From: Methanospirillum sp.
GTDB lineage: Archaea; Halobacteriota; Methanomicrobia; Methanomicrobiales; Methanospirillaceae
DNA: 64,000 bases
Strand: one strand, 5' to 3'
NCBI RefSeq assembly: GCF_041859935.1
Contig: NZ_JBFLGE010000002.1
The notes under the pieces are model-generated. The model ran no database searches. It saw only the letters and a list, made by a program, of their open reading frames with translations, and was not told the origin of the DNA. The translations under genes and the position numbers were made by a program. This document shows, piece after piece, positions 6,786 to 56,140 of this stretch (within the stretch, counting starts at the first letter, position 1; each line of letters opens with the position of its first letter).

Positions 6786-8831
6786 ATGGCTGGAATTGAA
6801 AAAAGCCTGATAAAAAGAGTAATGGTAGCAGTCATCAGCCTTTTTTTTCTGGTTCATGCTGTTTCTATAGTATGCGGAGCAGATGATATCTTCTCTTCAG
6901 GCGGAACAACCATTGTCGGTTATTATAAGGGTGATCACGTATCAGACACGATTCCCTCGTCAATGGAGGCTGGTACATCTTACCCTGTTGTCATCACATT
7001 TCAAAATAACGGGATGGTCTCCTGGGAATGGGGTGTTGAAAAGTTTGGCCTTTTATACCAGGGATTACAGTCATCAATCACCGTTGACCCGGTTTTTTCA
7101 CCAATTCCTCTGGGTGTGAAGGTTGGTACACAGGAGACCATCTCCTTCCCCTTCGTTCTTGTCCCTCCTGAAAAGCCAGGTGAATATGAGCTCAGTTTTT
7201 CAATGTCAACCAGGAAGGGCGAAGATAAGTATACGCCTTTTTCAAACGGGTTTACTAAAAGGATCATGGTAATCCCAAAAGAAGGGGTATCTTCCGGAAA
7301 TGTAGGTTCAATAATCATCAATTCAAACCCTTCAGGTGCAATGGTCAGAATGGGCAGTGAGGAAAAAGGGAATACTCCGCTCACCCTGCCTGACCTGAAT
7401 CCTGCAAAATACGAAATTACAATTCTTCACCCTGATTATGACAATAAATGGACACAGGTTCAGGTTCAGCCAGGTTCAGTCAGCAGGGTAACTGTTGATC
7501 TGACTTCTTCAGAAAAACCAACTGTATCAACAGAACAGCTCATGAGGTTCACACCGCTTGGCTGGCTGATGGATAATTTTTCTCTCATCATCATCAGTAT
7601 TATCATCCTTTTTTTTGGGTTCCAGGTCATCATGATGGACACGAAAAGAATCCCGGAGCATCACCCGTTACGACAGTATACCCGTCCATTCATTCTTCTT
7701 ACTCCTTCATCTGATGGAAAAAGCAGGTTTCATCGCGGAGACAGGAAAACCAGTAAAGGAGGTATTGCCTCTGGTGGTTCTGATACTTCCGGGATTGCTG
7801 ACGGGACTGAAGGAAGAAAACAGGGGAAAACAGCCGGTTCAGATTCTGGTGCAAGGAAAAATATCCGTGACAGGACAACAAGGCGGGAAGGAGAAGTTTT
7901 AGATAAAAAATCTATTGAAATTGAAGAAGAAGATATCGCGCCTGAAGTTCGGGATGTAGACCAGAAAACAAAAGAGATGGAAGGAATGTGGGGATTTCCC
8001 CATTCTCTTCGTGACCGGTACGAACCACTTGGTGTTGCCGGGGATGATTCATATGCCCGTATCTACAAGGTTCGAAAAAAAGAAGGAGGTGCTGTCCGTG
8101 CCCTCAAGGTTGGCCATTTAAAAGAGCTGGGGAGTGAAATTTTACAGAAAGAATCAGCAGTCTGGAGATCACTCAGACATCCAAATATTGTGCCTCTTTT
8201 CAGATATGAATTCCTGGACGACATGACTTATCTTGAAAATGAGTATCTGAACGGAATATCATACAAAGGCGTTGTTTACACCTCATTATCCGGACTTCCA
8301 AAACCTTTAAGGGAGCAGTATGCAGTGTCCCTTGTCCGTGATATCGCTGAAGGGTTGAGATATGTCCATGAGATTGGCGTCCGCCATTATCATCTGCAGA
8401 CTGGTAATATTCTTCTTACTCCCAAGCTCCGTGCCAGGGTATCAGGGTTTGCAAGAGGGAAAAATGAAATCGGATTCTCCATCAAGGATTCGGATGTCAA
8501 AGATGCAACTGCTGCGTACATTACCCCTGAACAGAAAGATGGGGAAGAATATGGTAATCCCGGGCGACGGACAGATATCTACCAGTTGGGTGTTATCTTT
8601 TATGAACTGCTAACAGGTTGTCTTCCATATAGTCCTGAGGCATTTCAAAAATCAGGTCATGAAGGAATATACGAGGATCATGCAGAAGAACTGATCCTGC
8701 CATCTGTTTTCAGAAAAAGTCTTGAAAAATATGATCCTGTCCTGATACATATGTTATCGAGAAAAAAGTCTGGTCGTTATTACCTCATTGATGAACTAAT
8801 TGTTGATCTTGATAATATCGGGAAGACCTGA
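6786..8831 (+). CDS. Receptor-like membrane protein 1: signal peptide, Ig-like module, PEGA domain, TM helix, disordered linker, kinase-like (predicted pseudokinase) domain
   Basis: 681 aa. Hydrophobic N-terminus. PEGA-like GSIIINSNPSGAMVRM..GNTPLTLPDLNPAKYEITI. TM FSLIIISIIILFFGFQVIMM. C-terminus has kinase-like landmarks VRALKV, RHPNIV, TPE, TDIYQLGVIFYELLTG, but HYH replaces HRD and SGF replaces DFG. Confidence 0.75.
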   Translation: MAGIEKSLIKRVMVAVISLFFLVHAVSIVCGADDIFSSGGTTIVGYYKGDHVSDTIPSSMEAGTSYPVVITFQNNGMVSWEWGVEKFGLLYQGLQSSITVDPVFSPIPLGVKVGTQETISFPFVLVPPEKPGEYELSFSMSTRKGEDKYTPFSNGFTKRIMVIPKEGVSSGNVGSIIINSNPSGAMVRMGSEEKGNTPLTLPDLNPAKYEITILHPDYDNKWTQVQVQPGSVSRVTVDLTSSEKPTVSTEQLMRFTPLGWLMDNFSLIIISIIILFFGFQVIMMDTKRIPEHHPLRQYTRPFILLTPSSDGKSRFHRGDRKTSKGGIASGGSDTSGIADGTEGRKQGKTAGSDSGARKNIRDRTTRREGEVLDKKSIEIEEEDIAPEVRDVDQKTKEMEGMWGFPHSLRDRYEPLGVAGDDSYARIYKVRKKEGGAVRALKVGHLKELGSEILQKESAVWRSLRHPNIVPLFRYEFLDDMTYLENEYLNGISYKGVVYTSLSGLPKPLREQYAVSLVRDIAEGLRYVHEIGVRHYHLQTGNILLTPKLRARVSGFARGKNEIGFSIKDSDVKDATAAYITPEQKDGEEYGNPGRRTDIYQLGVIFYELLTGCLPYSPEAFQKSGHEGIYEDHAEELILPSVFRKSLEKYDPVLIHMLSRKKSGRYYLIDELIVDLDNIGKT

Positions 8832-8869
8832 ACCGGTAGTATAAATAGGCTGTACACATACCTGATTCT

Positions 8870-11356
8870 TTGAGCCCTGGTCAGATGATCCCTGTCATAC
8901 TCTTGATTTTTTTAATTGTTCCGGTTGCAATGTCTCCGGTTTGTGCCCAAGAGCAGTGGATAACATATTCCGGTTTTGGTCCTTCGTACACTGGTGACAC
9001 CATCCCTGATACCCTGCTGCCAGGCCAGTCATACCCGGTTACAGTAACTTTTCGAAATACCGGTCTTGTCAGCTGGCAGGACGAGATGAGACGTATAGGT
9101 CTTCTTTATGAAGGGGATATGACAAAAGTCGTTGCCATCCCTGCTTTTGTTGAAGTAACACGCAATTTAAACATTACTCCCGGGAAACTGGCCCATTTTG
9201 GTTTTACCTTGTTGCCGGTAGGAATTCCAGGCACTTACAATCTTTCCTTTTCAGTAGTCATGCGGTCAGCAACCGGTGACCAGAAGATAACTGAAGTATT
9301 TGTAAAACGTGTCACGATTGTTCCGACTGATGGAATATCATCACCAGTGAATGGTTCAATCTTTGTTGAAAGCCAATTGCCAGACCTGAATGTATACCTT
9401 GACTCTGCTTTTAAAGGGAACGTTCCAGCAATAATTGCCGATTTAAAACCCGGTCATTACATTATTCGGGTAATTAATAATTCTTTTGAGCAAAACTGGC
9501 CAGTTGACGTGGAACGAGGCGTTATGACACGTCTTTTTATAACCGGAGAAAAAACTTCACCAGTAATCACAAAGAAAAAGGCCGGCATTATATCTGACGG
9601 GACACTTATTGGATATATTGAAGTGAATATTCCCCTGATTGCAATAATTTCTTTTATCTTCCTCTTATGTACTGGTGTTGTTATTTATGTGGTAAGAAAA
9701 CGTAAGCGTGTAATGGAAGAAAGAAAAATAGAGGCAGAAAAAGAAAGATCAAAAGATCCCGAATCTGATAAAGCAAAAAAAGAGAAAGAACTTCTTGATA
9801 AAATTCATAGTAAAAAACCATTATTTTCAGGCCTTTCCCCTTCATCCGCACCACGTCAAAATGCTGGAGGTAAAAAATTTTTAGACAAACTTACCGGTGT
9901 TCGTGCTACTGGCAGGAGATCTTCACAGGTACCAGGGGTAAAAAAGGATAAAAAACCTTTAAAAGAATCTTCCATACCCGGTTCAAAGACAGATATTCCA
10001 GAACTGGATTTAAAAGTCCGTGACCTGGACACCAGGCCCGGGTCTGCAACTGCAAGTATCGGGGTATCAAATTTATCACCTGTTCCTGTTACAATGGAAG
10101 ATAATACCATCTCTCCTGGCGGATTTGGGATTGTCCAGGTAGAACTTGATGAGCCCGCAAATGATGAACCGGAAATCATATTTTCGCTACGTTTTCTTGC
10201 GGAAGGTTCAGAGTTTTTAAAAAATATTGCAATACCATATAACCTGGGGATTGCTTTACTCGCCCGCGGAGTTATTGAAAAAGCATATGAATATTTCAGG
10301 GTATTACTGGCTGCACATCCTGACAATATCAGCGGGTTATTAAACCAGGCACATATTCTTCTTAACTGGGGCCTTGAAGAAGAAGCAATATCTTTTCTGA
10401 ATGAAGTCCTTGTTTTGGATCCTGGTAACGAAGATGCCTTAAACCTCCTTAACCATATTCAGGACAAAAGAAACCAAAAAAAGAGTAAACAGGAACCTGA
10501 ACCAGGATCAAAAATTCCTGACTATCCTGATGAATTATCTGACCGGTATACTCCAATACGCCTTTTAGGAGATGATCCTTTTGCAATTGTTGTTCTGGTC
10601 CGCAAAAATGACACCGGGGAATTACGTGCCCTGAAAATTCCCCGTACATCAGAAAAAATTAGTTCATCCCTTTATACAGAGATATCATTACTGTATCAAC
10701 TCCGTCATCCTTATGTGCTCAGGATGTTCAGGGCAGAATTTTCTCCGGTTGTCATGCTTGAACTTGAATTTGTATCAGGAGGGTGGCATGACGGAAAACA
10801 GTACACGACATTATCTGATTTACCTGTACCCCTGCCCTTTGATACCTGGTTCCCGCTGATTGAAAAAATAACAGAAGGCCTTGCCTATTTACATCGCCAG
10901 GGAGTTCGCCATTATCATCTTTCACCAAAACATATCCTGCTTGATGAACCAATGAACCCAAAAATATCAGGTCTTGTTCGCGAATCCCTTCGTGAAGCCG
11001 GGGTGAGTGGTAAAGAAGAGTTTTTTATCATGGCTCCGGAGCAGGCAGATTCAAAAAAGTATGGTAAACCTGGAAAAAAGACAGACATCTACCAGCTTGG
11101 GGCAATATGGCTCTGGCTGGTTACCGGCCAGGTTATGGACCAGGAAATAACTGACAGGGAAGACATTACTATTACAAGGGTGAATGGTGTTATTGATGAC
11201 AGTCTTGAATTGTATGCACCAATTTTTTATAAACTGACGGCCTGTTATAAAAAAGACAGATATCCATCTGCTGAGTCATTTTTGAATGATTTGAAAAGAG
11301 TCAGTCCTGGTATCTCTAAAATAAAAAGGAAAATTACTGATGGAGACGTCACATGA
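8870..11356 (+). CDS. Receptor-like membrane protein 2 (paralog): Ig-like + PEGA ectodomain, TM, K/E/S-rich linker, beta-rich and TPR-like segment, kinase-like domain
   Basis: 828 aa from TTG 8870 (ATG at 8885 is an alternative start). Same domain order as 6786..8831. Kinase-like motifs are LRALKI, HYH, SGL, APE, TDIYQLG. Confidence 0.72.
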   Translation: MSPGQMIPVILLIFLIVPVAMSPVCAQEQWITYSGFGPSYTGDTIPDTLLPGQSYPVTVTFRNTGLVSWQDEMRRIGLLYEGDMTKVVAIPAFVEVTRNLNITPGKLAHFGFTLLPVGIPGTYNLSFSVVMRSATGDQKITEVFVKRVTIVPTDGISSPVNGSIFVESQLPDLNVYLDSAFKGNVPAIIADLKPGHYIIRVINNSFEQNWPVDVERGVMTRLFITGEKTSPVITKKKAGIISDGTLIGYIEVNIPLIAIISFIFLLCTGVVIYVVRKRKRVMEERKIEAEKERSKDPESDKAKKEKELLDKIHSKKPLFSGLSPSSAPRQNAGGKKFLDKLTGVRATGRRSSQVPGVKKDKKPLKESSIPGSKTDIPELDLKVRDLDTRPGSATASIGVSNLSPVPVTMEDNTISPGGFGIVQVELDEPANDEPEIIFSLRFLAEGSEFLKNIAIPYNLGIALLARGVIEKAYEYFRVLLAAHPDNISGLLNQAHILLNWGLEEEAISFLNEVLVLDPGNEDALNLLNHIQDKRNQKKSKQEPEPGSKIPDYPDELSDRYTPIRLLGDDPFAIVVLVRKNDTGELRALKIPRTSEKISSSLYTEISLLYQLRHPYVLRMFRAEFSPVVMLELEFVSGGWHDGKQYTTLSDLPVPLPFDTWFPLIEKITEGLAYLHRQGVRHYHLSPKHILLDEPMNPKISGLVRESLREAGVSGKEEFFIMAPEQADSKKYGKPGKKTDIYQLGAIWLWLVTGQVMDQEITDREDITITRVNGVIDDSLELYAPIFYKLTACYKKDRYPSAESFLNDLKRVSPGISKIKRKITDGDVT

Positions 11357-13848
11357 ATGCCTCATTTATGATATCACTTTTCGTTCCTTTTTTCATCTTA
11401 CTTTTGGTAATTTCACCCGCATGCTGTGCTGATCTTGACATATTTTCAGGAATTTCTTTTTTAGGAGGTAAATACTCCACAAATAGTTTCCCAGATGAGA
11501 TGTATCCTGGTCAGAGTGGCCAGTACATGGTAGAATTTCTCAATACCGGAATGACAGCCTGGGAAAATGATGTTGAAAAGGTAGGGGTTGAATGTTTTGG
11601 TGATTCATCAATAATATCGGTTGAACAGAACATACAGCTGTTACCACAAGGGTCCAGGGTTCACTCCGGGAAGAGCTATCATTTTCCATTTTTCATTACT
11701 GCACATAACATTGGCCAGGCTTACCTGACTTTTGCGGTTGTCCAATTACATCCATCAGGAAAAACCACGATAATTTCCGATCCTAAAACAGTTTCAATCA
11801 ATGTAATGTCCGGTATTCAGGGTAATGAGAAAAATACCGGCAGCATCCAGGTGTCCGCAGGCCCTCTTCACCTGCCTGTTGAACTTGACGGCATACCTGT
11901 TGGCCTGACGCCACTCACCCTTCCTGACATCCCTGTCGGAGATCACCTCATTACCATCGAAGGAAAGGAAGGTGTTGTGGATAAAATGGTTGTAGTTGAA
12001 CCAGGTTCATTAAGCTCAATCACCTACAGCCCTGATAAATCAGTAGTAGTGATTGAAACCGGAGAATCACTCTTACTTGACAATTCAAACCCTCTCCTAA
12101 GACTGATATTATCAAACTTTTTTATAGCCCTTGGGCTGGTTTTTGCCTTGACAATTATAGCTGTTATCTCTATTGTTATTATCACAATAAAGATGCGAAA
12201 AGTAAAATTTACCATTTCAGAAGTTCTCCCCTGCTCGCTGCATAAAAAAAGTACCAGAGACTTTGCGATTGAAACAAGAAGAAAATCTGCTTTTGATGAA
12301 GTTATTTTTGAACCAGTTGCCGGATTATTCAATCAGGGGGAAAAGAAATTAATAAAAATACAGGTAACAAACCTGGGGATAAAAGCGATTGTTGTTCAAA
12401 AAATCCGCATTGATCCTGGAAAAAGCTGGATTATTTTAAAAGAAATTATGGATGATGATCCTGGTGACAATGAAGATATCCAGGAGATTTCCTATATCGA
12501 CAGTAATGGAAAAGAAAAATCACAAATTGTTCATCTTCAGTACCGTATAAAACCGGGACATGCTGATATCTCGTGGTTTTTCAAACGTTTTATTCTTAAA
12601 AAAGGAAAGATTGTTGCGATTGTTAATATAAAAAATAATGGTTTTTTACCCCTTAATGTCGATTCAACAGCTATACCCTCCGGAGAGGAAAAAGAGATGG
12701 AACTGGAACTTGACGTTCCTGACAATGATGCTGCATCGGTTTATAAAAAATTAGAGATTTTTGCAGGCAGTCTTAACCCTTTCACATTATCTGTGAAAAT
12801 ACCCTACAACATGGGAATTTTTTTATTTTTTTCAAAAAAGTATGCAAAATCACTGAAATGGTTTAACCAGCAGATAACCCGGGACAATGGAGATCCCACT
12901 ATAAACCGGTACCGTGACCTTATTGTAAAAAAGTTAAATCTTTCTTCAAAATCACAAAAACCGGATTTGACAAGTTTGGATGAAGAGTTACCTGGTTTTG
13001 TGGAAAAAAGAGATCAGATGGCGGATGTTTCAACCCGGGTTTCATCCTCTCCCCAGGTACCCGGGTTTCCTGATTCTTTATTGCCTGTATATAAACCGTC
13101 TGAACTGATATCATCAGACCGGCTTGGACTCATGTTCAGTGCTGTAAGAGCTTCAGATAATGAAGAAGTTGCAATCCGGGTTCTTGATTTAGGGTTGATG
13201 CCTCCATCCCAGATAGAATTGCAGATACATACCTGGAGGGCGTTAAAACACCCGAATATTCTGCAAATTAAGTTTTGGGAACGTGATCCTGTCTACTATA
13301 TTGAATTTGATCTCCCGTCCGGTGCAGTGCAATATAAAAGAAAAATTTTTACACTTGCAGATCTTAAAGTGCCCATACCTTCCCGTGCTGCATTGTATAT
13401 TACCAGGGGACTTGCAAAAGGCATTTATTATATCCATCAGCAGGGAGTCAGGCATTATCTGCTTGAACCATCTACTATTTTTCTGGACAAAGAGTTACAT
13501 CCAAAAATTTCAGGGTTTGACATGTCTGCTCTTATCCTGTCTAAAATCCCCGCGGATTGTTGGATTATTGCTCCAGAGCAGCGAAACCCTGAGAAATATG
13601 GAAATCCCGGGAAAAAGACTGACATCTACCAGGCAGGGGCAATTTTTAATTATCTTCTTTCCGGGCAGGTGCCTGGAAGTACTGAAAAAAAAAGTATACT
13701 TCCTTCTCACTTTCGTGATGAGTATTCCATTTATGATCCAGTAGTTCAAAAGTCCCTGCATATTGATAAAAACGAACGTTACGGAGATATTAGTGAAATG
13801 ATCCAGGAACTGGACAGTCTGCTGTCTTCTTCCTCAAAAAAAGGATAA
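11353..13848 (+). CDS. Receptor-like membrane protein 3 (paralog): Ig-like + PEGA ectodomain, TM, beta-rich repeats, TPR-like segment, kinase-like domain
   Basis: 831 aa; ATGA overlap with the previous gene. Motifs are VAIRVL, HYL, SGF, APE, TDIYQAG. Confidence 0.72.
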   Translation: MNASFMISLFVPFFILLLVISPACCADLDIFSGISFLGGKYSTNSFPDEMYPGQSGQYMVEFLNTGMTAWENDVEKVGVECFGDSSIISVEQNIQLLPQGSRVHSGKSYHFPFFITAHNIGQAYLTFAVVQLHPSGKTTIISDPKTVSINVMSGIQGNEKNTGSIQVSAGPLHLPVELDGIPVGLTPLTLPDIPVGDHLITIEGKEGVVDKMVVVEPGSLSSITYSPDKSVVVIETGESLLLDNSNPLLRLILSNFFIALGLVFALTIIAVISIVIITIKMRKVKFTISEVLPCSLHKKSTRDFAIETRRKSAFDEVIFEPVAGLFNQGEKKLIKIQVTNLGIKAIVVQKIRIDPGKSWIILKEIMDDDPGDNEDIQEISYIDSNGKEKSQIVHLQYRIKPGHADISWFFKRFILKKGKIVAIVNIKNNGFLPLNVDSTAIPSGEEKEMELELDVPDNDAASVYKKLEIFAGSLNPFTLSVKIPYNMGIFLFFSKKYAKSLKWFNQQITRDNGDPTINRYRDLIVKKLNLSSKSQKPDLTSLDEELPGFVEKRDQMADVSTRVSSSPQVPGFPDSLLPVYKPSELISSDRLGLMFSAVRASDNEEVAIRVLDLGLMPPSQIELQIHTWRALKHPNILQIKFWERDPVYYIEFDLPSGAVQYKRKIFTLADLKVPIPSRAALYITRGLAKGIYYIHQQGVRHYLLEPSTIFLDKELHPKISGFDMSALILSKIPADCWIIAPEQRNPEKYGNPGKKTDIYQAGAIFNYLLSGQVPGSTEKKSILPSHFRDEYSIYDPVVQKSLHIDKNERYGDISEMIQELDSLLSSSSKKG

Positions 13849-13849
13849 C

Positions 13850-15037
13850 ATGCCAGATAAACCCGTTTTATTAACAAGTTATTTCCTGTTTATGATGGTC
13901 CTGTCTCTTTTTTCTCCCCTGGTAAATGCAGTACCTGCTGAATCTGAAAAACTTCTTGCTGAGGGTGTTGATGCATATAATTCAGGTGACATGGAAAATG
14001 CACTCCGGTTATTTGAAACGCTCATAAATATGGATCCATCCTGGCCATATGGATGGCTCTGGAAAGGGACGGTATTAGCCGACCTGGGTAAACAAAAAAA
14101 GGCTGAAGACGCTTTTAGAACTGGAAGATGTCTTATCAGTCCGGATACCTGTGACGACTTAACCGAAGATGATGTTTCAGATTCTTATGATAAAACCAGG
14201 ACAAATTCTCATTCTGGTCTGGTTATCCCGCCTGTAATTGTCAACAGGGCAGTGGATCTGACGGAAGACACCATTAATCATCAACGAGTCTTTTCTCATT
14301 TTGATAGTCCTCCAAAAGACAATTTTGGATATGTTTTACAGCCACAGTCTGATTCATACCAGAAATCATTTGAACAGGAAGGAGATAAGCACATGAAAGC
14401 AGGAATGTATGATAAGGCGCTTCATTCATACCTGTTGGCCGAAGAAATTAATCCGGAAAATCCGGATATCTCCAGAAAAGTCGGGGACACATTTAAGGAA
14501 CTTGGCGATCTCAACTCCGCACTGGACGCCTGGAATCGTTCTGTTCAAAATGAATCAAATCAGAAAATATCTGATAATCTTAGGAAAAAAAGGTCTGATG
14601 CTTTTTCAGCCCAGAACATGCCAGAGCAAGCCATCCAGGAGTTTGAAAAGATAAAAACATCTGATTTTGATCCTGATATAGAATTTCAAAAAGGAGAGTT
14701 ATATTCCCGGTTACAGGATTATTCACTTGCAGAACAATCTTTTCAGGACTTCCTTTTATTAAATCCCGGAAATATTGATGCATCCCTAGGTCTTGCAAAT
14801 GCCAGGCTATGCCAGGGGAAGATTATTAGTACAGAAGAAATCCTTGATTCCCTCCCTCTCTTCTCTCTAAATCCTGATCAGGCAGACCTTCTGGAGAAAT
14901 TAAAAAAAGAGATAAAAAACCATCCTTCAGGTAAGACAGATGATATATCTGTCATTTTCAGCCATCCCGAATTATATATTCTGATTGGTATCGGTGTCTT
15001 TGGAATATTTTATTTCAGGGATAAAATTTTCAGGTAA
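13850..15037 (+). CDS. TPR-repeat protein with N-terminal signal sequence and C-terminal TM anchor
   Basis: 395 aa; starts 2 nt after the previous stop. Hydrophobic N-terminus ending ..VNAVPAE; several TPR-like A/L/Y/G/P patterns; C-terminal ELYILIGIGVFGIFYF helix. Confidence 0.65.
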   Translation: MPDKPVLLTSYFLFMMVLSLFSPLVNAVPAESEKLLAEGVDAYNSGDMENALRLFETLINMDPSWPYGWLWKGTVLADLGKQKKAEDAFRTGRCLISPDTCDDLTEDDVSDSYDKTRTNSHSGLVIPPVIVNRAVDLTEDTINHQRVFSHFDSPPKDNFGYVLQPQSDSYQKSFEQEGDKHMKAGMYDKALHSYLLAEEINPENPDISRKVGDTFKELGDLNSALDAWNRSVQNESNQKISDNLRKKRSDAFSAQNMPEQAIQEFEKIKTSDFDPDIEFQKGELYSRLQDYSLAEQSFQDFLLLNPGNIDASLGLANARLCQGKIISTEEILDSLPLFSLNPDQADLLEKLKKEIKNHPSGKTDDISVIFSHPELYILIGIGVFGIFYFRDKIFR

Positions 15038-42517: not shown

Positions 42518-43114
42518 ATGACGCAATATGGAAAAAATGTTATCGGGAAGGGTACCCGCATTTTTGATCCAGTAATACTTGGTTTTCCTCCACGGTATCA
42601 TTTGAACAAAGAATATTATGATGGTTGTTCAGTTGGCAGTAATGGAGTACTCAGACCTGGGACAACAATCTATGCTGATGTAAAGATTGGAGATTTTTTC
42701 TCATCAGGGCATAATGTGATGATCAGGGAAAAAACCACAATAGGAGATCATGTATCTCTTGGTACGAATGTGATCATTGAAGGGAACAGTACTCTTGGTG
42801 ATCATGTAAATCTTCAGAGCCTGGTATATATTCCGACAAACACAGTTTTGGGTTCTCATGTATTTATCGGTCCGAATTCTGTACTGACAAATGACAAATA
42901 TCCACCAAACGGGGGTGCAGATCTGCATGGGCCAATTCTCGAAGATTACGTCTCTATTGGGGCAAATGCCACGATTCTGCCAGGTGTTATCATTGGAATC
43001 GGCTCCCTTGTGGCAGCTGGTTCTGTGGTTACGAAAGATGTTCCTCCTGGGACTCTTGCCATTGGATCTCCGGCACGAATGAAGACACTTCCCGTGGGAG
43101 CGAAACGAAAATGA
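42518..43114 (+). CDS. Hexapeptide-repeat (left-handed beta-helix) N-acetyltransferase, WbpD-like
   Basis: 198 aa; repeated [LIV]G-x4 hexapeptides; NDKYPP motif; gene context. Confidence 0.8.
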
Positions 43115-44187
43115 TACCAGTTGCACATCCTGTTTTTGGCGATCAGGAAATTGAAGCTGTCTCCAGAATCATGCGATCAGGTATGATAGCCAGCGGGGAA
43201 GAAGTCTCTTTGTTTGAAAAGGAATTTGCAGATTATTGTGGCACAAAAGAGGCAATAGCGACAAACAACGGAACAACTGCCCTTCATGCCGGACTGATGG
43301 CATGCGGGATTCTCCCCGGTGATGAAGTAATCGTACCTTCGTTTACCTTTTTTGCCACTGCTTCCTCGGTCAGCATGTGCGGTGCAAAACCTGTGATGGT
43401 TGATGTATGTGAAGGTTCTTTTGGTATATCTCCGAGTGCCATTCTTGAATCAATAACTCCCAGAACGAAAGCAGTAATCGGTGTTCATCTCTTTGGTCAA
43501 CCCTGTGATATCTCTGCAATTATGGAGATATGTGAAGATCACCATCTGATGTTTATTGAGGATTGTGCCCAGGCACATGGTGCACTCTATAATGGAAAAA
43601 AGGTGGGATCATTTGGATCAATTGGATGTTTTTCTTTTTACCCAACGAAAAACATGACAACCGGAGAAGGAGGAATGATAACAACCAATGATCCGGGTAT
43701 TGCTGATCATGCCCGAAGGCTTATCAACCATGGTCAGGGAAAAAAATATCTCCATACAGAAATCGGGTTTAACTATCGACTTACTAATATTGGAGCGGCA
43801 ATAGGTAGAGTACAGCTCCGGAAAATCGATGCGATGAATGAAGCACGTAATAAAAATGCGATGTATTTTTCTGAGCATATACGAAACACGAAAATTTCAC
43901 TTCCTGTAACTCCCGATGGGTGTAGTCATGTTTATCATCAGTATGTCATACGAGTAAAAGATGGGAAACGGGATCAATTGACAACCTGGCTTTCAGAACA
44001 GGGTATCGGAACTGCGATTCATTACCCTATTCCGGTAAATGAACAACCGGTTTATTCAACCGTTCCAAACCCTCCCTGTCCAGTATCTGCAAGACTTGCC
44101 CAGGAAGTGCTGAGTCTGCCAGTCTATCCGGGTTTGACAGATAAGGAATTGGAGTATATTTGTAATACTCTGAATAGGTGGTCCTGA
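43111..44187 (+). CDS. DegT/DnrJ/EryC1/StrS-family PLP aminotransferase, WbpE-like
   Basis: 358 aa; [14 protein letters not shown] lysine context typical of the family. Confidence 0.88.
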
Positions 44188-45092
44188 TGGATGTTGGCGT
44201 AATCGGGACCGGAATGATGGGACAGAACCACGTCCGTGTTTATTCTGAGCTGAAAGAAGTCGATTCTGTTGTAATATATGATGTGAATGCAGATCAGGCC
44301 AAAAAAGTTGCCTCAAATAATAATGCAGAAGTTGCAGATTCTTATGAATCCCTCTTTCACAGTGTTGATGCTGTAAGTCTTTGTGTCCCGACACCATTCC
44401 ATTACGAGGTTGCTCTGAAAATCATTCATGCAGGCATGCATATGCTTATTGAAAAGCCAATCTGCCTTTCTTCAATAGAAGGTAAAAAACTGGCAGAGCA
44501 GATACCTGAAGATCTCATTGTAGGAGTAGGTCATATTGAGCGTTTCAACCCAATAGTTTCAGAAATATCGCAAATGATCTCAAACCCTTTGTATATTGAA
44601 TTTAAACGTCATAACCCGACGTCTTCAAGGGTCACAGGAAGTTCTGTTGTAGAGGATTTGATGATTCATGATATCGATATCATGCTTCATTCACTTGGTT
44701 GTTCTGGAGCGTCTGTTCAGGCAAAGGGAAATGATGATGTTGCAGCAGCATTGTTTACCAAAGGATATTCATTGATTTATTTATCTGCAAGCAGAAAAGC
44801 TTCTAAAAAAATCCGGATGATTCACATAGAACAGGAAGACATGACGATCCAGGGAGATTTCATGACCCAGGAGATTTATGTCTATCGAAAACCCGGTCAG
44901 TATAAAGTTGAACGAGATCGATATGTCCAGGAGAATATTGTTGAAAAAGTACTTGTTGCTAAACAGGAACCACTTCGTACTGAGCTCTCTTCATTTCTGA
45001 ATTCAGTAAAAACGAATAAACCCTTTCCAATCACTCCCTTGGAAGCAATACAAAACCTTGAGTTATGTGAGCAGATTAAAGGATTGTTTTAG
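44187..45092 (+). CDS. Gfo/Idh/MocA-family NAD oxidoreductase, WbpB-like
   Basis: [15 protein letters not shown] Rossmann N-terminus and EKP motif. ATG 44187 overlaps the previous TGA; the ORF track starts at GTG 44178. Confidence 0.85.
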   Translation: MDVGVIGTGMMGQNHVRVYSELKEVDSVVIYDVNADQAKKVASNNNAEVADSYESLFHSVDAVSLCVPTPFHYEVALKIIHAGMHMLIEKPICLSSIEGKKLAEQIPEDLIVGVGHIERFNPIVSEISQMISNPLYIEFKRHNPTSSRVTGSSVVEDLMIHDIDIMLHSLGCSGASVQAKGNDDVAAALFTKGYSLIYLSASRKASKKIRMIHIEQEDMTIQGDFMTQEIYVYRKPGQYKVERDRYVQENIVEKVLVAKQEPLRTELSSFLNSVKTNKPFPITPLEAIQNLELCEQIKGLF

Positions 45093-45094
45093 TA

Positions 45095-46531
45095 ATGAAT
45101 AAAATATTAACGGATTACTTCGAGAAGAGAGGTCCGATTAAAACAATTGGAGTTATTGGGATGGGATATGTTGGTATCCCGGCAGCGGCTTTATTTGCGA
45201 AATCTTTTGACAGAGTATATGGATTTCAACGGAATTCTCCGAGTTCCGGATACAAAATCTCATTATTGAATTCTGGTAATAATCCGTTAAAAGGTGAAGA
45301 ACCTGGTCTGGATGAACTAATAAAGGATATAGTTCTTAAAAAAAAGTTTGAATGTACTTCTGATTTTTCAAAGATATCCTCTTGTGATGCAGTTACTATT
45401 GCAATTCAGACACCCTTTTTAGATCCAAAAGATTTGATTCCTGACTTTTCAGCTCTTGAGGAAGGTATCAGACAGGCAGGAAAATATCTTAAAAAAGGGA
45501 CATTGGTTGTTCTGGAATCAACAATAACACCCGGGACAACAGAAACATGGGCAAAAAAAATTTTAGAAGAAGAATCTGGTTTTATAGCGGGTCAGGATTT
45601 TGGACTTGCACATGCTCCTGAAAGAGTGATGGTCGGAAGACTTCTGCAGAATATTCAGGAACATGATCGCGTTGTTGGTGGCATTGATGATGCAAGTACT
45701 AAACGAGCGATGGAATTGTATGGCCCAGTTCTGACGAAAGGAAAACTTATTCCTATGACTGCAACTGCTGCAGAAGTTACGAAAACTGCGGAAAATACAT
45801 TCAGGGATTTGCAGATTGCTGCAGCAAACCAGCTTGCTCTTTATTGCGAGGCCATGGGTATCAACTTTTATGATGTGAGAACGGGGATCGATTCCCTTAA
45901 GGGTGATGGGATTAGCCGTGCTATTCTATGGCCTGGAGCCGGTGTTGGAGGACATTGTCTAACCAAGGATACCTATCACCTGGAAAGGGGGATAGATGTG
46001 GCGGGTATTTCTTTTCTTGATTTCCCGGAAGATCATGAGTCTTTATTCACCCTTGCAAGGCATGTGAATGATTTTATGCCCAGCCATATGTTTCATCTGG
46101 TCAGACAGGGTCTTTCTTGTGTTGGGAAGGCTGTATCCGGGTCCAGGATTGCTATACTGGGTTTTTCATTTCTTCCGAATACTGATGATGCACGAAACAC
46201 TCCAACAGAACAGTTCAATAATATCTGTTTGAAACATGGAGCAGTGACACAAATTCATGATCCATGGGTTCGCGAATATCCTGGGATCAGTTTGTCATCT
46301 GACATTGAACCGGTGCTGAAGGATGCAGATGTCCTTGTATTTATGACTGCTCACCAGATGTATTATTCATTGGATTATGAATGGGTAAAGAGAATAATGC
46401 GACCATATCCTGTTTTAGTGGACGGAAGAAATATTGTTGATCCTGATATTATCATCCAGGCAGGATTTGTTTATGAAGGGATAGGGCGAGGGGATAAAAA
46501 CATTGGTAGTGGCCTTTACAAAAGCTGGTAA
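45095..46531 (+). CDS. UDP-N-acetyl-hexosamine 6-dehydrogenase (WbpA/WecC family); last 9 codons supplied by an inserted IS element
   Basis: 478 aa; GMGYVGIPAAALFA Rossmann motif; GGHCLTKD catalytic Cys. The reading frame crosses the IS boundary at 46505. Confidence 0.85.
   Translation: MNKILTDYFEKRGPIKTIGVIGMGYVGIPAAALFAKSFDRVYGFQRNSPSSGYKISLLNSGNNPLKGEEPGLDELIKDIVLKKKFECTSDFSKISSCDAVTIAIQTPFLDPKDLIPDFSALEEGIRQAGKYLKKGTLVVLESTITPGTTETWAKKILEEESGFIAGQDFGLAHAPERVMVGRLLQNIQEHDRVVGGIDDASTKRAMELYGPVLTKGKLIPMTATAAEVTKTAENTFRDLQIAAANQLALYCEAMGINFYDVRTGIDSLKGDGISRAILWPGAGVGGHCLTKDTYHLERGIDVAGISFLDFPEDHESLFTLARHVNDFMPSHMFHLVRQGLSCVGKAVSGSRIAILGFSFLPNTDDARNTPTEQFNNICLKHGAVTQIHDPWVREYPGISLSSDIEPVLKDADVLVFMTAHQMYYSLDYEWVKRIMRPYPVLVDGRNIVDPDIIIQAGFVYEGIGRGDKNIGSGLYKSW
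46497..46504. repeat. Target-site duplication AAAACATT (left copy)
   Basis: Identical 8-mer at 47602-47609, immediately flanking the inverted-repeat ends. Confidence 0.7.
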
Positions 46532-51978: not shown

Positions 51979-52716
51979 ATGATCGAATATGGAATAAACA
52001 CGATCGGTGAGAATGCTGTAATATTTGATCCAGTAACCATTGGTTTCCCTTCCCGACAAAATATTGGGAAAAGAGATTTTAATGGGGTTATTATTGGCAA
52101 TAATGCAGTTATTCGTTCCGGAACTATTTTATATTGTGATGTGTTAGCAGGAAATTCGTTTTCAACGGGTCATAATGTCATGGTTCGCGAAAAAACCGTG
52201 ATTGGGGATAATGTCTCACTTGGAACTGGAGTAATAATAGAAGGAAATTGTGAGATTGGCAGTAATTCAAATCTGCAAAGTCTGGTTTACATACCCACAA
52301 ATAGTACGGGTCATAATGTCATGGTTCGCGAAAAAACCGTGATTGGGGATAATGTCTCACTTGGAACTGGAGTAATAATAGAAGGAAATTGTGAGATTGG
52401 CAGTAATTCAAATCTGCAAAGTCTGGTTTACATACCCACAAATAGTAAAATCGGAAATCATGTTTTCATTGGGCCCAATGCTGTTCTAACGAATGATAAA
52501 TATCCCCCGCATGGTGGTCAAAATTTATCTGGCCCGACAATCTCTGACTATGCAGCAATTGGGGCTAATGTTACGATACTCCCTGGTGTTCATATAGGGA
52601 AGGGTTCACTTGTTGCTGCCGGTTCAGTAGTTACCCGTGATGTCCCTGAAAAAACTCTGGCAATTGGTTCTCCCGCACGAATGAAAGAGTTACCTGGGGG
52701 AGTAGTTTATTCATGA
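51979..52716 (+). CDS. Hexapeptide-repeat N-acetyltransferase (WbpD-like paralog) carrying a 47-aa internal tandem duplication
   Basis: 245 aa versus 198 aa for the paralog at 42518..43114; the extra 47 aa are an exact repeat. Confidence 0.8.
   Translation: MIEYGINTIGENAVIFDPVTIGFPSRQNIGKRDFNGVIIGNNAVIRSGTILYCDVLAGNSFSTGHNVMVREKTVIGDNVSLGTGVIIEGNCEIGSNSNLQSLVYIPTNSTGHNVMVREKTVIGDNVSLGTGVIIEGNCEIGSNSNLQSLVYIPTNSKIGNHVFIGPNAVLTNDKYPPHGGQNLSGPTISDYAAIGANVTILPGVHIGKGSLVAAGSVVTRDVPEKTLAIGSPARMKELPGGVVYS
52165..52446 (+). repeat. Perfect 2 x 141-bp direct tandem duplication inside the acetyltransferase gene
   Basis: 52165-52305 and 52306-52446 are identical base for base (checked by eye). Confidence 0.95.
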
Positions 52717-53795
52717 TTCCTATCGCAAAGCCATGTGTTGGAGATGAGGAAGCTGAAGCTGCTGGCACAGTAATCCGGTCTGGGATGCTTGCAAGTGGGA
52801 AGGAAGTCAGGATGTTTGAAGAGGAATTTGCTTCTTACATAGGGGTTCCAGAAGGTATTGCTACAAGTAATGGCACAACAGCGTTGCATGTAGCACTTCT
52901 CGCTCATGACATCGGTCCAGGTGACGAAGTTATTGTTCCCTCATTTACCTTTATCGCAACTGCAACATCCGTAAGCATGACCGGAGCAACGCCGGTTTTG
53001 GCAGATGTTGATAAAAAAACCTATTGCATTGATCCAAATTCTGTGATGGATATCCTCACTCCAAAAACGAAGGCAGTAATTGGTGTCCATTTATTCGGAC
53101 ACGCCTGTGAGGTTCGTTCAATACACGATATTTGTGTAGATCATAAACTCGAGTTTATTGAAGACTGTGCCCAGGCTCATGGTACAGAATATAATGGTAA
53201 AAAGGTGGGTAGCTTTGGGGCATGTGGGTGTTACTCATTTTATCCAACAAAAAATATGACCTCTGGAGAGGGAGGTATGATTACTTGCCAGGATGATTCA
53301 CTTTCAGAGCGAATACGGCGACTAATAAATCATGGTCAAAAGGAAAAATACCTGCATACAGAGTTAGGTTATAATTTCAGGCTTACGGACATCGCTGCCG
53401 CTATCGGGAGGGTACAGCTTAAAAAACTACCTGAAATGAATAAAAAAAGACAAGATAATGCAGCATTTTATAACTCCTTTATAAATAACGACGGTATTAT
53501 TCTTCCTTTTACTGATCCAAAATCAAATCATGTTTTTCACCAATATGCGATTTGTATTCGCCGCAATGACATGGATCGGGACTCTTTTGCAAAAGTCTTA
53601 CTTGATAATGGTATAGGTACTGCTGTCCACTACCCAATTCCAATCCATAAGCAGCCTCTCTATGGGAACACATCTGGTTCACAATGCCCTGTTTCTGAAT
53701 CATTATCCAAAGAAATACTTAGTTTACCTGTTTATCCTGATTTAAAAACTGATGAACGCAAATTCGTTGTTGAAACAATAAACGGAGTTAATTAA
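52713..53795 (+). CDS. DegT/DnrJ/EryC1/StrS-family aminotransferase (WbpE-like paralog)
   Basis: 360 aa; colinear with 43111..44187; [14 protein letters not shown]. Confidence 0.88.
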   Translation: MIPIAKPCVGDEEAEAAGTVIRSGMLASGKEVRMFEEEFASYIGVPEGIATSNGTTALHVALLAHDIGPGDEVIVPSFTFIATATSVSMTGATPVLADVDKKTYCIDPNSVMDILTPKTKAVIGVHLFGHACEVRSIHDICVDHKLEFIEDCAQAHGTEYNGKKVGSFGACGCYSFYPTKNMTSGEGGMITCQDDSLSERIRRLINHGQKEKYLHTELGYNFRLTDIAAAIGRVQLKKLPEMNKKRQDNAAFYNSFINNDGIILPFTDPKSNHVFHQYAICIRRNDMDRDSFAKVLLDNGIGTAVHYPIPIHKQPLYGNTSGSQCPVSESLSKEILSLPVYPDLKTDERKFVVETINGVN

Positions 53796-53796
53796 G

Positions 53797-54711
53797 ATGG
53801 ATGTAGGAGTTATTGGGACTGGCCAGATGGGGAGAAATCATGTCCGGGTTTATTCAGAATTAAAACCCGTTTCTTCAGTTCATATTTTTGATTTAAATGA
53901 AAAACAGACTGAAGAAGTCGCAAAACAATATGGGGTTGATTGCGCCAGCTCAATGGAGGATTTACTCAGTAAAGTAGATGCAGTCAGCCTTTGCATACCC
54001 ACTCCGTATCATTACAAAACAGCAATGGATATTCTGTCTCATGGCATGAATGTTCTTATTGAAAAACCGATATGCCTCACAGCACAGGAAGGATCAGATC
54101 TTATTCAAAAGATTTCTTCTGATATTGTGGTTGGAGTGGGTCACATTGAACGGTTTAATCCCATTGTGCCAGAAATTGCTCGTATGATCTCAAATCCGTT
54201 GTATGTCGAATTAAAAAGACATAATCCTACCTCATCGAGAATTTCAGGAAGTTCAGTAGTTGAAGATTTAATGATTCATGATATTGATATTGTCCGTCAT
54301 TGTCTTCTTGGTGATACGTATGATATTTTTTCACGTGGAACAACAGATGTGGCCACAGCGCTCTGTCAATTTGGCTCTACTCCCGTTTATTTTTCAGCGA
54401 GCAGAAAATCATCGAAAAAAATCCGCATGATACATATTGAACAGGAAGATATGACCATTGAGGGTGATTTTATGACACAGGAGATATATGTTCATAAAAA
54501 ACCAGAGCAATATTCTGTTGATGATGAAAGGTATATTCAGGAAAATATCGTGGAAAAGGTCCAGGTAGCAAAAAAGGAACCGCTCCGTTCTGAGTTGGTT
54601 CAATTTCTTGATGCTGTTTCAAAGGGTCACGGATTTCCGGTTACTCCGGAACAAGGTGTTGAAAATTTAAAGATCTGTGAAAAAATTATGAGAGGCCTAT
54701 CCAATGTCTGA
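53797..54711 (+). CDS. Gfo/Idh/MocA oxidoreductase (WbpB-like paralog)
   Basis: 304 aa; colinear with 44187..45092. Confidence 0.85.
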   Translation: MDVGVIGTGQMGRNHVRVYSELKPVSSVHIFDLNEKQTEEVAKQYGVDCASSMEDLLSKVDAVSLCIPTPYHYKTAMDILSHGMNVLIEKPICLTAQEGSDLIQKISSDIVVGVGHIERFNPIVPEIARMISNPLYVELKRHNPTSSRISGSSVVEDLMIHDIDIVRHCLLGDTYDIFSRGTTDVATALCQFGSTPVYFSASRKSSKKIRMIHIEQEDMTIEGDFMTQEIYVHKKPEQYSVDDERYIQENIVEKVQVAKKEPLRSELVQFLDAVSKGHGFPVTPEQGVENLKICEKIMRGLSNV

Positions 54712-56140
54712 AAAATTAAAAGAAATAATCCGCAACCGCGGTCCTATTAAAAAAATTGGGGTTATCGGGATGGGCTATGTGGGTATTCCTGCTGCTGCTC
54801 TCTTTGCAAATATTCCCCATATCGAAAAAGTTTTTGGTTTTCAGCGTAACTCCCCTTCATCCGGGTATAAAATTGCATATCTAAATCAGGGTAATAATCC
54901 CTTAAAAGGTGAAGAGCCTGGCCTTGATGATCTCATTGCAAAGATGGTCCAGGAAAAGAAATTTGAATGCACTGATGATTTTTCAAAAATTGTGGAATGC
55001 GATGCAGTTACCATCGCAATTCAAACCCCATTTAAAGACCCGAAAGACCTAATCCCTGACTTTTCTGCCTTAGAAGAAGGGATTCGGCTTGCGGGTAAAT
55101 ATATCACTCCTGGTTCTCTCGTTGTATTAGAGTCGACAATAACTCCTGGCACTACGGTTGGATTAGGTCGTAATCTACTTGAGGAAGAATCCGGTCTTGT
55201 AGCAGGGGAGGATTTTGCACTTGCTCATGCACCAGAACGAGTCATGGTGGGACGACTTCTTCAGAATATCCAGGAACATGATCGGATCGTCGGAGGTATT
55301 GATCATATGAGTACTTCCCGTGCAGTTGAATTATATTCGCCTGTTCTGACGAAAGGGAAAATAATTCCAATGACTGCAACAGCTGCAGAAGTAACGAAAA
55401 CAGCGGAAAATACGTTCCGTGATCTTCAGATATCTGCAGCGAATCAACTTGCTTTGTATTGTGAAGCGATGGGGATTAATTTTTATGATGTACGGGCCGG
55501 TATCGACTCTCTCAAGGGTGATGGGATTACCCGGGCGATTTTATGGCCTGGAGCTGGTGTTGGCGGGCATTGCCTTACAAAAGATACGTACCATCTTGAA
55601 CGGGGAATTAAGATTACCAATGTTGAGCCCCTTGACTATCCCGAAGGAAATGATTCATTGTTTGTTCTGGCAAGAAAGATAAATGACTTCATGCCTGAAC
55701 ATATGTTTAATTTACTGACCCATGGTTTTGAGCGAATTGGAAAAGATGTGAAGGGTTCCAAAGTCGCTCTTCTTGGCTGGTCTTTTCTTCCAAATACTGA
55801 TGATTCAAGAAACACACCTGCAGAACCATTTAAGGACCGCTGTGTTCACGCCGGTGTTGATATCCGTGTTCATGATCCCTGGGTAAAGGAATACCCCGGA
55901 ATTAGTATTCTCTCGGATTTGAATGAAGTGCTTGCGAATGCTGATGCTGTTGTCATATTTTCCGGACATAGGGAGTATTGTGATCTAAATCCCCGGTTCA
56001 TCAGCTCCTTGACAAATGCTGTTCACCCTGTGATCGTTGATGGGAGAAATGTTATTAATCCAGATCTTTTCATCTCGTCAGGTTTTATTTACAAGGGTAT
56101 TGGCAGGGGAGATAAAAACCAACACCCTCTCCATGAGTAA
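54704..56140 (+). CDS. UDP-N-acetyl-hexosamine 6-dehydrogenase (WbpA/WecC-family paralog)
   Basis: 478 aa; colinear with 45095..46531 up to ..GIGRGDKN. Confidence 0.88.
   Translation: MSEKLKEIIRNRGPIKKIGVIGMGYVGIPAAALFANIPHIEKVFGFQRNSPSSGYKIAYLNQGNNPLKGEEPGLDDLIAKMVQEKKFECTDDFSKIVECDAVTIAIQTPFKDPKDLIPDFSALEEGIRLAGKYITPGSLVVLESTITPGTTVGLGRNLLEEESGLVAGEDFALAHAPERVMVGRLLQNIQEHDRIVGGIDHMSTSRAVELYSPVLTKGKIIPMTATAAEVTKTAENTFRDLQISAANQLALYCEAMGINFYDVRAGIDSLKGDGITRAILWPGAGVGGHCLTKDTYHLERGIKITNVEPLDYPEGNDSLFVLARKINDFMPEHMFNLLTHGFERIGKDVKGSKVALLGWSFLPNTDDSRNTPAEPFKDRCVHAGVDIRVHDPWVKEYPGISILSDLNEVLANADAVVIFSGHREYCDLNPRFISSLTNAVHPVIVDGRNVINPDLFISSGFIYKGIGRGDKNQHPLHE

Follow-up and report, generated by a model that had tools for sequence, protein, structure and literature searches.

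Three tandem receptor-like genes of Methanospirillum represent an archaeal family of predicted pseudokinases

A stretch of 64,000 nucleotides from Methanospirillum sp. (assembly GCF_041859935.1, contig NZ_JBFLGE010000002.1; the whole stretch is here denoted the window) carries three consecutive intact open reading frames (ORFs) on the + strand, g1, g2 and g3, encoding receptor-like proteins of 681, 828 and 831 amino acids. An earlier note, made from the sequence alone, had proposed that their three kinase-like domains lack catalytic residues. We found that the domains have a kinase fold, that the residues are missing, that the proteins descend from canonical receptor kinases and that their kinase-like domains are under purifying selection. 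The reading that we favour, and consider reasonably likely, is that g1–g3 are non-catalytic receptor pseudokinases that signal by protein contacts, probably as hetero-oligomers. They belong to a clade, denoted RHY after its catalytic-loop signature, which is an undescribed, lineage-restricted archaeal family; receptor pseudokinases as such are already known, and the family brings no new principle. The three genes are:

g1, positions 6786 to 8831, + strand: receptor-like predicted pseudokinase of 681 amino acids (ORF; Pfam Pkinase E 4.2e-22, PEGA E 4e-12)
g2, positions 8870 to 11356, + strand: paralogue of 828 amino acids (ORF; Pfam Pkinase E 1.5e-16)
g3, positions 11353 to 13848, + strand: paralogue of 831 amino acids, the most degenerate of the trio (Pfam Pkinase E 4.5e-15)

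Hydropathy gave one layout for all three proteins: behind a signal peptide come some 220 amino acids of ectodomain, then a single transmembrane (TM) helix with basic residues after it, and the C-terminal half is cytoplasmic. The Pkinase profile PF00069 scored 79.3, 61.1 and 56.2 bits in g1, g2 and g3, against a gathering cut-off of 31.7. An AlphaFold2 (AF2) model of the g1 domain (mean confidence, pLDDT, 84; predicted template-modelling score, pTM, 0.86) showed a bilobal kinase fold, with the expected strand-loop-strand arrangement near domain residues 133–155, and its best structural matches in Foldseek were PknB kinase domains (template-modelling score ~0.7, E 1e-14).

g1 kinase-like domain, positions 7986 to 8828, + strand: assigned by phmmer against PknB 6i2p (E 5.6e-20), AF2 and Foldseek

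The catalytic positions were mapped in three ways, by phmmer against the PDB, by a profile of the clade against the PDB, and by hmmalign with the nearest canonical archaeal kinases. The phmmer search with g1 found PknB 6i2p as best match (E 5.6e-20) and placed H-Y-H beneath H-R-D. The clade profile matched StkP 9ruk best (E 5e-31), in a gapless alignment that sets GvRHYhLqpgn over GivHrdLkPqn and akvSGfa over akvtDFg. In all three alignments the column of the HRD Asp holds His in g1, His in g2 and Leu in g3, so that H-Y-H, H-Y-H and H-Y-L lie under H-R-D and the catalytic-loop Asp is absent throughout, as the earlier note had it. The DFG-Asp column is Gly in g1, g2 and g3, and no alternative register gives Asp or Glu. 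The best-supported register, gapless against both the closest canonical relatives and StkP, equates T-D-W/F-G with S-G-F/L-A; the note was thus right that no domain has this Asp, and its register needs correcting, the DFG-Asp position being the Gly of SGF and not the Ser. The sites concerned are:

g1 Gly-rich loop A-G-D-D-S-Y-A, positions 8037 to 8057, + strand: degenerate, the second Gly of GxGxxG being Asp421
g1 catalytic-loop equivalent G-V-R-H-Y-H-L-Q-T-G-N, positions 8376 to 8408, + strand: HRD replaced by HYH and Lys by Gln, Asn retained
g2 catalytic-loop equivalent G-V-R-H-Y-H-L-S-P-K-H, positions 10901 to 10933, + strand: no Asp, Asn replaced by His
g3 catalytic-loop equivalent G-V-R-H-Y-L-L-E-P-S-T, positions 13444 to 13476, + strand: from the motif alignment
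g1 DFG equivalent V-S-G-F-A, positions 8439 to 8453, + strand: Gly554 at the DFG-Asp position, after strand E150-152 of the AF2 model
g2 DFG equivalent I-S-G-L-V, positions 10964 to 10978, + strand: from the motif alignment
g3 DFG equivalent I-S-G-F-D, positions 13507 to 13521, + strand: from the motif alignment

Translation reproduced the peptides read earlier, RHYHLQTGN to SGF (8382-8450), RHYHLSPKH to SGL (10907-10975) and RHYLLEPST to SGF (13450-13518). Where canonical relatives have GEGGFA, the Gly-rich loops (G-loops) read G-D-D-S-Y-A in g1, G-D-D-P-F-A in g2 and S-S-D-R-L-G in g3; the second Gly is Asp in each, and none has the clear GxGxxG that the note had also failed to see. The beta3 Lys is kept in g1 (RALKV) and g2 (RALKI) and is Arg in g3 (VAIRV), again in agreement with the note; g1 and g2 likewise have the alphaC Glu, which is displaced or lost in g3. 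The catalytic-loop Asn survives in g1 alone of the trio. Of the structural landmarks said to be conserved, the APE Glu, the alphaF Asp (TDIYQxG) and the alphaH-I Arg of the C-lobe are kept in all three, but RHPN(I/V) occurs only in g1, with RHPYV in g2 and KHPNI in g3. Judged for catalytic competence, g1–g3 therefore have neither the HRD Asp, nor the DFG Asp, nor GxGxxG. A pseudokinase is operationally a kinase fold missing at least one of the beta3 Lys, the HRD Asp and the DFG Asp (PMC12599244, PMC10211241); g1 and g2 are without two of these residues and g3 without all three, which places all three domains among predicted pseudokinases, as proposed. Judging from these residues, g1–g3 most likely carry out no phosphotransfer.

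To place the trio in its family, homologues were collected by a homologue search and by a profile search of 1.84 billion representatives at 50% identity, and aligned by hmmalign; column statistics compare 43–46 RHY-clade domains with 90 sister-clade domains. The signature is common to only about 17–20 of the best 150 clusters. Clear members are P0072-74, 76, 77, 79, 80, 83-85, 87, 88, 97, 134, 137 and 184, and P0186, 187, 194 and 208 are more divergent. The other clusters are canonical archaeal kinases (GEGGFA / ALK / H[RL]D.KP.N / ITDWG / APE / RTDIYQLG) or giants with multiple kinase domains. At the second G-loop Gly the two clades differ without exception, the sister clade having Gly (100%) and the RHY clade Asp (100%). 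The DFG Asp, likewise 100% in the sister clade, is Gly in 46/46 RHY-clade domains. Two residues before the HRD Asp (HRD-2), 93% of the RHY clade has Arg, whereas the sister clade has Tyr in 53% and mostly Ile, Phe, Val or Trp in the rest; the HRD Arg itself, retained in 66% of the sister clade, is Tyr in 93% of the RHY clade. The HRD-Asp position, Asp in the sister clade, is His in 22/22 domains of the g1 type and 9/11 of the g2 type and Leu in 6/8 of the g3 type, the Asp being missing in 45 of 46 RHY-clade domains. All 90 sister-clade domains have Asp at both the HRD and the DFG positions, and against this background the replacements in the RHY clade are not a chance pattern. The structural core persists, with the APE Glu and the alphaF Asp in 46/46 RHY-clade domains and the alphaH-I Arg in all 43 that cover that column. 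GVRHY, singled out by the earlier note as the conserved replacement, is indeed conserved at its Arg and Tyr, but the G-loop Asp and the Gly at the DFG position are more invariant.

In a neighbour-joining tree the RHY clade was monophyletic in 100/100 bootstraps and nested among canonical archaeal kinases, and the g1-, g2- and g3-type subclades each include sequences from outside the seven Methanospirillum loci described below. Since all three types lie inside one monophyletic clade, the tree indicates that the catalytic residues were lost once, in a common ancestor and before the paralogues diverged, and not three times. The canonical relatives often have a signal peptide, PEGA repeats, a TM helix and a kinase domain, together with a juxtamembrane FPxEL..YEPL motif; this shared architecture and motif point to an active PEGA-receptor kinase as the ancestor. 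By domain order and by nesting in the tree, g1–g3 themselves belong with the archaeal PEGA-receptor kinases. The sole RHY-clade domain with an HRD Asp is P0187 (L017 10001-11953), which falls within the monophyletic group; its RHFD keeps that Asp, its ISGF has lost the DFG Asp, and the G-loop Asp is present. P0187 may be an intermediate state or a reversal. Its gene is followed in L017 by one for a 338-amino-acid protein without a Pfam match.

Two further groups were observed around the clade. Giants with 4–10 tandem kinase-like domains, many of them with a degenerate HRD or DFG, are among the profile matches (P0081, P0082, P0094, P0106, P0116, P0167, P0171 and P0176; P0116 has 10 domains in 2911 amino acids). 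Many canonical relatives from Thermococcus and Archaeoglobus have H-L-D for H-R-D and D-W-G for D-F-G and are thus non-RD kinases (P0013-P0015, P0017, P0075, P0095, P0100 and P0102); the Trp in DFG is unusual.

We then compared orthologues, taking one genome per species, at seven Methanospirillum or Methanomicrobiales loci (L001–L007, including M. purgamenti CP075546). Wherever the contig was long enough the order g1-g2-g3-g4 is preserved, g4 being the gene that follows g3, and in the seven Methanospirillum genomes every orthologous ORF that no contig end truncates is intact. By BLAST of the locus ORFs, full-length identities are 66–80% for g1, 59–70% for g2, 50–64% for g3 and 42–56% for g4; the g1 kinase-like domain is 76–87% identical across the loci. 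With the Nei-Gojobori (NG86) method, and with synonymous divergence (dS) saturated (at least 1) throughout, the ratio of nonsynonymous to synonymous divergence (dN/dS) of the kinase-like domain is 0.05–0.07 in g1, 0.11–0.15 in g2 and 0.11–0.16 in g3. The juxtamembrane linkers gave 0.10–0.52, and the domain lay under its adjacent linker in 11 of 13 comparisons with usable dS, the two being about equal in g2 against L004. These data demonstrate strong purifying selection on the kinase-like domains.

The same data bear on the idea that g1–g3 are decaying remnants, recently inactivated kinase genes under relaxed selection and turning into pseudogenes, to which we give next to no credence. It has on its side that catalytic residues are gone in all three genes and that g3 is the most degenerate. 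However, there is no frameshift or stop in the window or in any uncut orthologue, and such frame disruption had been set beforehand as the sign of decay; dN/dS is 0.05–0.16, with saturated dS; and the replacements have become fixed as identical residues in different genera, with an invariant structural core. Intact ORFs, low dN/dS and fixed replacements effectively refute simple decay. The note's view of an old, selected loss gains in turn from the monophyly of the clade and from the intact syntenic orthologues, which together with dN/dS indicate that the genes are not decaying.

Pairs of the family were also found elsewhere. In L012 an 827-amino-acid PEGA receptor (RHYHISLSN) stands in tandem with a TM-anchored protein of 464 amino acids (RHYHLQPGN). 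L015 derives from a methanogen with a SecY that shares 75% identity with that of the window; here a g1-like gene of 691 amino acids is followed by one of 849 amino acids that resembles g2 and g3 in its PEGA, beta-rich and TPR layout. The secY-adk-EMC3-cmk cluster of the window recurs in L015, 3.7 kb upstream of the pair. Adjacent divergent paralogues thus recur across methanogen contigs. L014 encodes a soluble family member of 390 amino acids.

The reading that we favour can be put as a course of events. An active archaeal PEGA-receptor Ser/Thr kinase would have been the progenitor, and catalysis would have been lost once within Methanomicrobiales; duplication after the loss would have produced three old paralogue types, held side by side. 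The ectodomains would sense something at the cell envelope, and the TM helix would relay the signal to a pseudokinase domain acting as a conformational switch or docking scaffold and not as an enzyme. The paralogues, presumably translationally coupled and co-expressed, probably form hetero-oligomers; the close packing of the genes and the tandem pairs on other contigs speak for this reading, and the TPR modules of g2 and g3, with the TPR protein g4, may provide further interaction surfaces. The absence of phosphotransfer, hetero-oligomerisation, the nature of the signal and the output are what we infer.

Several points weigh against this reading. Neither an interaction partner nor an output was identified for g1–g3. 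Both the beta3 Lys and the alphaC Glu persist in the g1 and g2 types, as do hydrophobic adenine-pocket positions; the g1 type also retains the Asn/Asp that ends the catalytic loop and always has His where the catalytic base would be, so that nucleotide binding or some catalysis may persist. Canonical Hanks kinases that g1–g3 could regulate were sought with a Thermococcus-type kinase domain; most matches are nameless, and those with a name come from Thermococcales, Archaeoglobales, Methanococcales, Methanofollis and Methanophagales, none from Methanospirillum. Finally, WNK, CASK, SelO and SidJ, all predicted pseudokinases, proved active through relocated residues or other chemistry (in part, PMC12599244).

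The g1 type, perhaps with the g2 type, could accordingly be a re-wired enzyme, atypical but active, or a nucleotide- or metal-sensing switch. In such a site metal would be bound not by a DFG Asp but by the G-loop Asp together with the catalytic-loop Asn/Asp, and the His at the HRD-Asp position would serve as base; in a variant of the idea, the chemistry would be some other reaction that depends on nucleotide. In its favour, the replacements are not random but specific and conserved (G-loop Asp, HRD-2 Arg and Tyr at the HRD Arg at the frequencies given above; in the g1 type His at the HRD Asp, and Asn or Asp at the Asn position, each in 22/22), the beta3 Lys and the alphaC Glu are retained in the g1 and g2 types, and the g1 kinase-like domain is the most constrained (dN/dS ~0.06). 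Migrated residues have precedent in predicted pseudokinases (PMC10211241, PMC12599244). Yet the catalytic-base residue varies across the clade, being Leu in the g3 type and Tyr, Asn or Phe elsewhere; the g2 and g3 types no longer have the catalytic-loop Asn, and g3 also lacks the beta3 Lys and the alphaC Glu. An Asp at the second G-loop Gly is moreover expected to clash with ATP phosphates and repel them, and we know of no precedent for His as catalytic base in a kinase fold. We hold a re-wired site to be unlikely, though by far the most serious of the alternatives. Slightly less probable still is a division of labour in which the g1 type, its site rebuilt from the G-loop Asp, the His, the Asn/Asp and the surviving Lys-Glu pair, would bind nucleotide, metal or both non-canonically, for an unconventional reaction or as a ligand-gated switch, and the fully degenerate g3 type would be an obligate non-catalytic partner; if true, the pairing of g1 and g3 types would be an archaeal parallel to pairs of the HER2/HER3 type.

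That g1–g3 serve as the kinase of a system for defence against phages (MAD6, PD-T4-6, PglW or MkoA-like) is very improbable. The best NCBIfam and PADLOC matches of g1–g3 are indeed the MAD6 and PD-T4-6 kinase models, but the scores are generic (MAD6 92 bits against a cut-off of 460, PglW 35 against 990), and no NCBIfam model reaches its cut-off. Partner defence genes are absent, the neighbours being housekeeping genes (ribosomal-protein cluster, secY, adk, cmk, a PAPS-reductase-like gene and thiM), the genomic position is conserved across genera, and g1–g3 are without the catalytic residues on which those defence kinases depend. Generic matches below cut-off in a housekeeping context led us to reject a defence-system kinase.

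Among known systems, the closest to the non-catalytic receptors proposed here are the archaeal PEGA-receptor 'ITDWG' kinases of Thermococcus, Pyrococcus, Archaeoglobus, Methanococcales and Methanofollis (e.g. P0090, P0093, P0096, P0013-P0020), within which the RHY clade is nested. They have the same fold and the same order of signal peptide, PEGA, TM helix and kinase domain, and share FPxEL..YEPL, APE, RTDIYQLG and KxxRY with g1–g3. Where they have GEGGFA, ALK, H[RL]D.KP.N and ITDWG, however, g1–g3 have G.D, RHY[H/L] and SG[F/L], without the base and metal Asp. The nearest solved structures, PknB, StkP and Stk1 (6i2p, 9ruk, 9ymt), are single-pass receptors with a cytoplasmic kinase fold, like g1–g3. 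These bacterial proteins are only ~23% identical to g1–g3, are active with intact K, HRD and DFG, and have the opposite domain order, with the kinase N-terminal and the PASTA sensor C-terminal.

Seven prokaryotic pseudokinase families have been described, namely ActPs1-3 (including the M. tuberculosis MviN/MurJ-linked protein), GLW, CP1, DLHK and DYD (PMC12599244). Like g1–g3, these and YukC/EssB are membrane-associated and conserved, with a kinase fold, degraded motifs and a presumed scaffold or allosteric role. ActPs3 has the motifs VALT / Lsidhpsr / Y-- and the GLW family has GLW at HRD; none has GxD / RHYH / SGF, and at the VAIK, HRD and DFG positions the published motifs depart from RALK / RHYH / SGF (PMC12599244); the ActPs1-3, GLW, CP1, DLHK and DYD families are bacterial, whereas the RHY family is archaeal with a different canonical parent, a separation drawn from published motifs only. 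HER3 and plant receptor-like kinase (RLK) pseudokinases such as BIR2 are receptors with a non-catalytic kinase fold that heteromerise with paralogues, which is the model proposed for g1–g3. They share no descent with g1–g3 beyond the kinase superfamily, and the kinases that they pair with are active. Neither the M. hungatei genome paper (PMC4704411) nor a review of archaeal phosphorylation (PMC5007285) mentions the genes of the trio, and one member of the clusters carries the annotation 'protein kinase domain-containing protein [Methanospirillum sp.]'. Archaeal pseudokinases are on record only as census counts; PMC10211241, with reference to Kwon 2019, states that about 2% of archaeal proteomes contain them.

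The extracellular part of g1 was also modelled. Besides the hydrophobic segments of g1 (amino acids 7-37 and 256-287), the features are:

g1 ectodomain, positions 6876 to 7571, + strand: two beta-sandwiches, an NBR1-FW-like Ig domain and then PEGA
g1 TM helix, positions 7569 to 7637, + strand: from a Kyte-Doolittle scan

The AF2 model of the ectodomain is all-beta (pLDDT 80), and its structural matches in Foldseek are only generic Ig-like ones, including NBR1 4ole, that offer no clue to a ligand; the match to Pfam N_BRCA1_IG is faint and under cut-off. PEGA passes the Pfam cut-off in g1 alone (46 bits), g2 and g3 scoring 19.7 and 19.2 against 20.8. A homologue search with the g1 ectodomain matched only orthologous fragments and nothing outside the family. 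Between the TM helix and the kinase-like domain, g1 has a disordered linker rich in Ser, Thr, Arg and Gly. g2 shares the ectodomain and TM helix of g1. We observed in g2 (9700-10490) and g3 (12200-13040) an extra cytoplasmic segment, absent from g1, that lies between the TM helix and the kinase-like domain and consists of a beta-rich part followed by TPR-like repeats; the TPR matches in g2 are all under the Pfam gathering score.

Directly after the trio lies a fourth gene:

g4, positions 13850 to 15037, + strand: TPR protein of 395 amino acids (Pfam TPR_2 E 2e-19), hydrophobic at both ends

g4 has a signal peptide at its N terminus and a TM anchor at its C terminus, which would place the TPR repeats outside the cell, a location for TPR that is unusual in archaea. 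Its orthologues come directly after g3 in L004 and L006 and were seen only in Methanospirillum. g4 is a candidate extracellular partner of g1–g3.

The start of g3 overlaps the stop of g2 by 4 nucleotides, and g4 begins 1 nucleotide past the stop of g3, to which it is presumably coupled in translation. The start of g2 is ambiguous, either TTG at 8870 or ATG at 8886; a TATA-like element, GTATAAATAG, was noticed at 8838-8848, about 25 nucleotides upstream of the predicted start, and g2–g4 may be under a promoter of their own, apart from that of g1. Upstream of g1 is the end of the archaeal ribosomal-protein cluster with secY, adk, an EMC3/DUF106-like membrane protein gene and cmk, and housekeeping genes, the PAPS-reductase-like gene and thiM among them, lie downstream of the trio. 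A local profile search detected no kinase-like gene in the window beyond g1–g3, and a scan of ten flanking proteins detected no phosphatase or FHA domain. Far from the trio, positions 42000-64000 of the window form a low-GC (0.36–0.41) island of surface-glycan genes with two paralogous triplets of DegT aminotransferase, GFO/IDH/MocA oxidoreductase and UDP-sugar dehydrogenase (43111-46531 and 52713-56140), as well as UDP-GlcNAc 2-epimerase, GT4 and GumK-like glycosyltransferases and an Asn-synthase-like gene.

Pseudokinases are well studied in eukaryotes, and in bacteria their classification is starting. The locus presented here gives a defined and conserved archaeal family with a clear active ancestor, diagnostic substitutions (GxD/RHY/SGF) and tandem paralogues, an arrangement that suggests hetero-oligomeric receptors. 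Recognising the family would correct the database annotation 'serine/threonine protein kinase' and overturns no current view. Because Methanospirillum can be cultivated, it may serve as a model for signalling by non-catalytic kinase folds in archaea.

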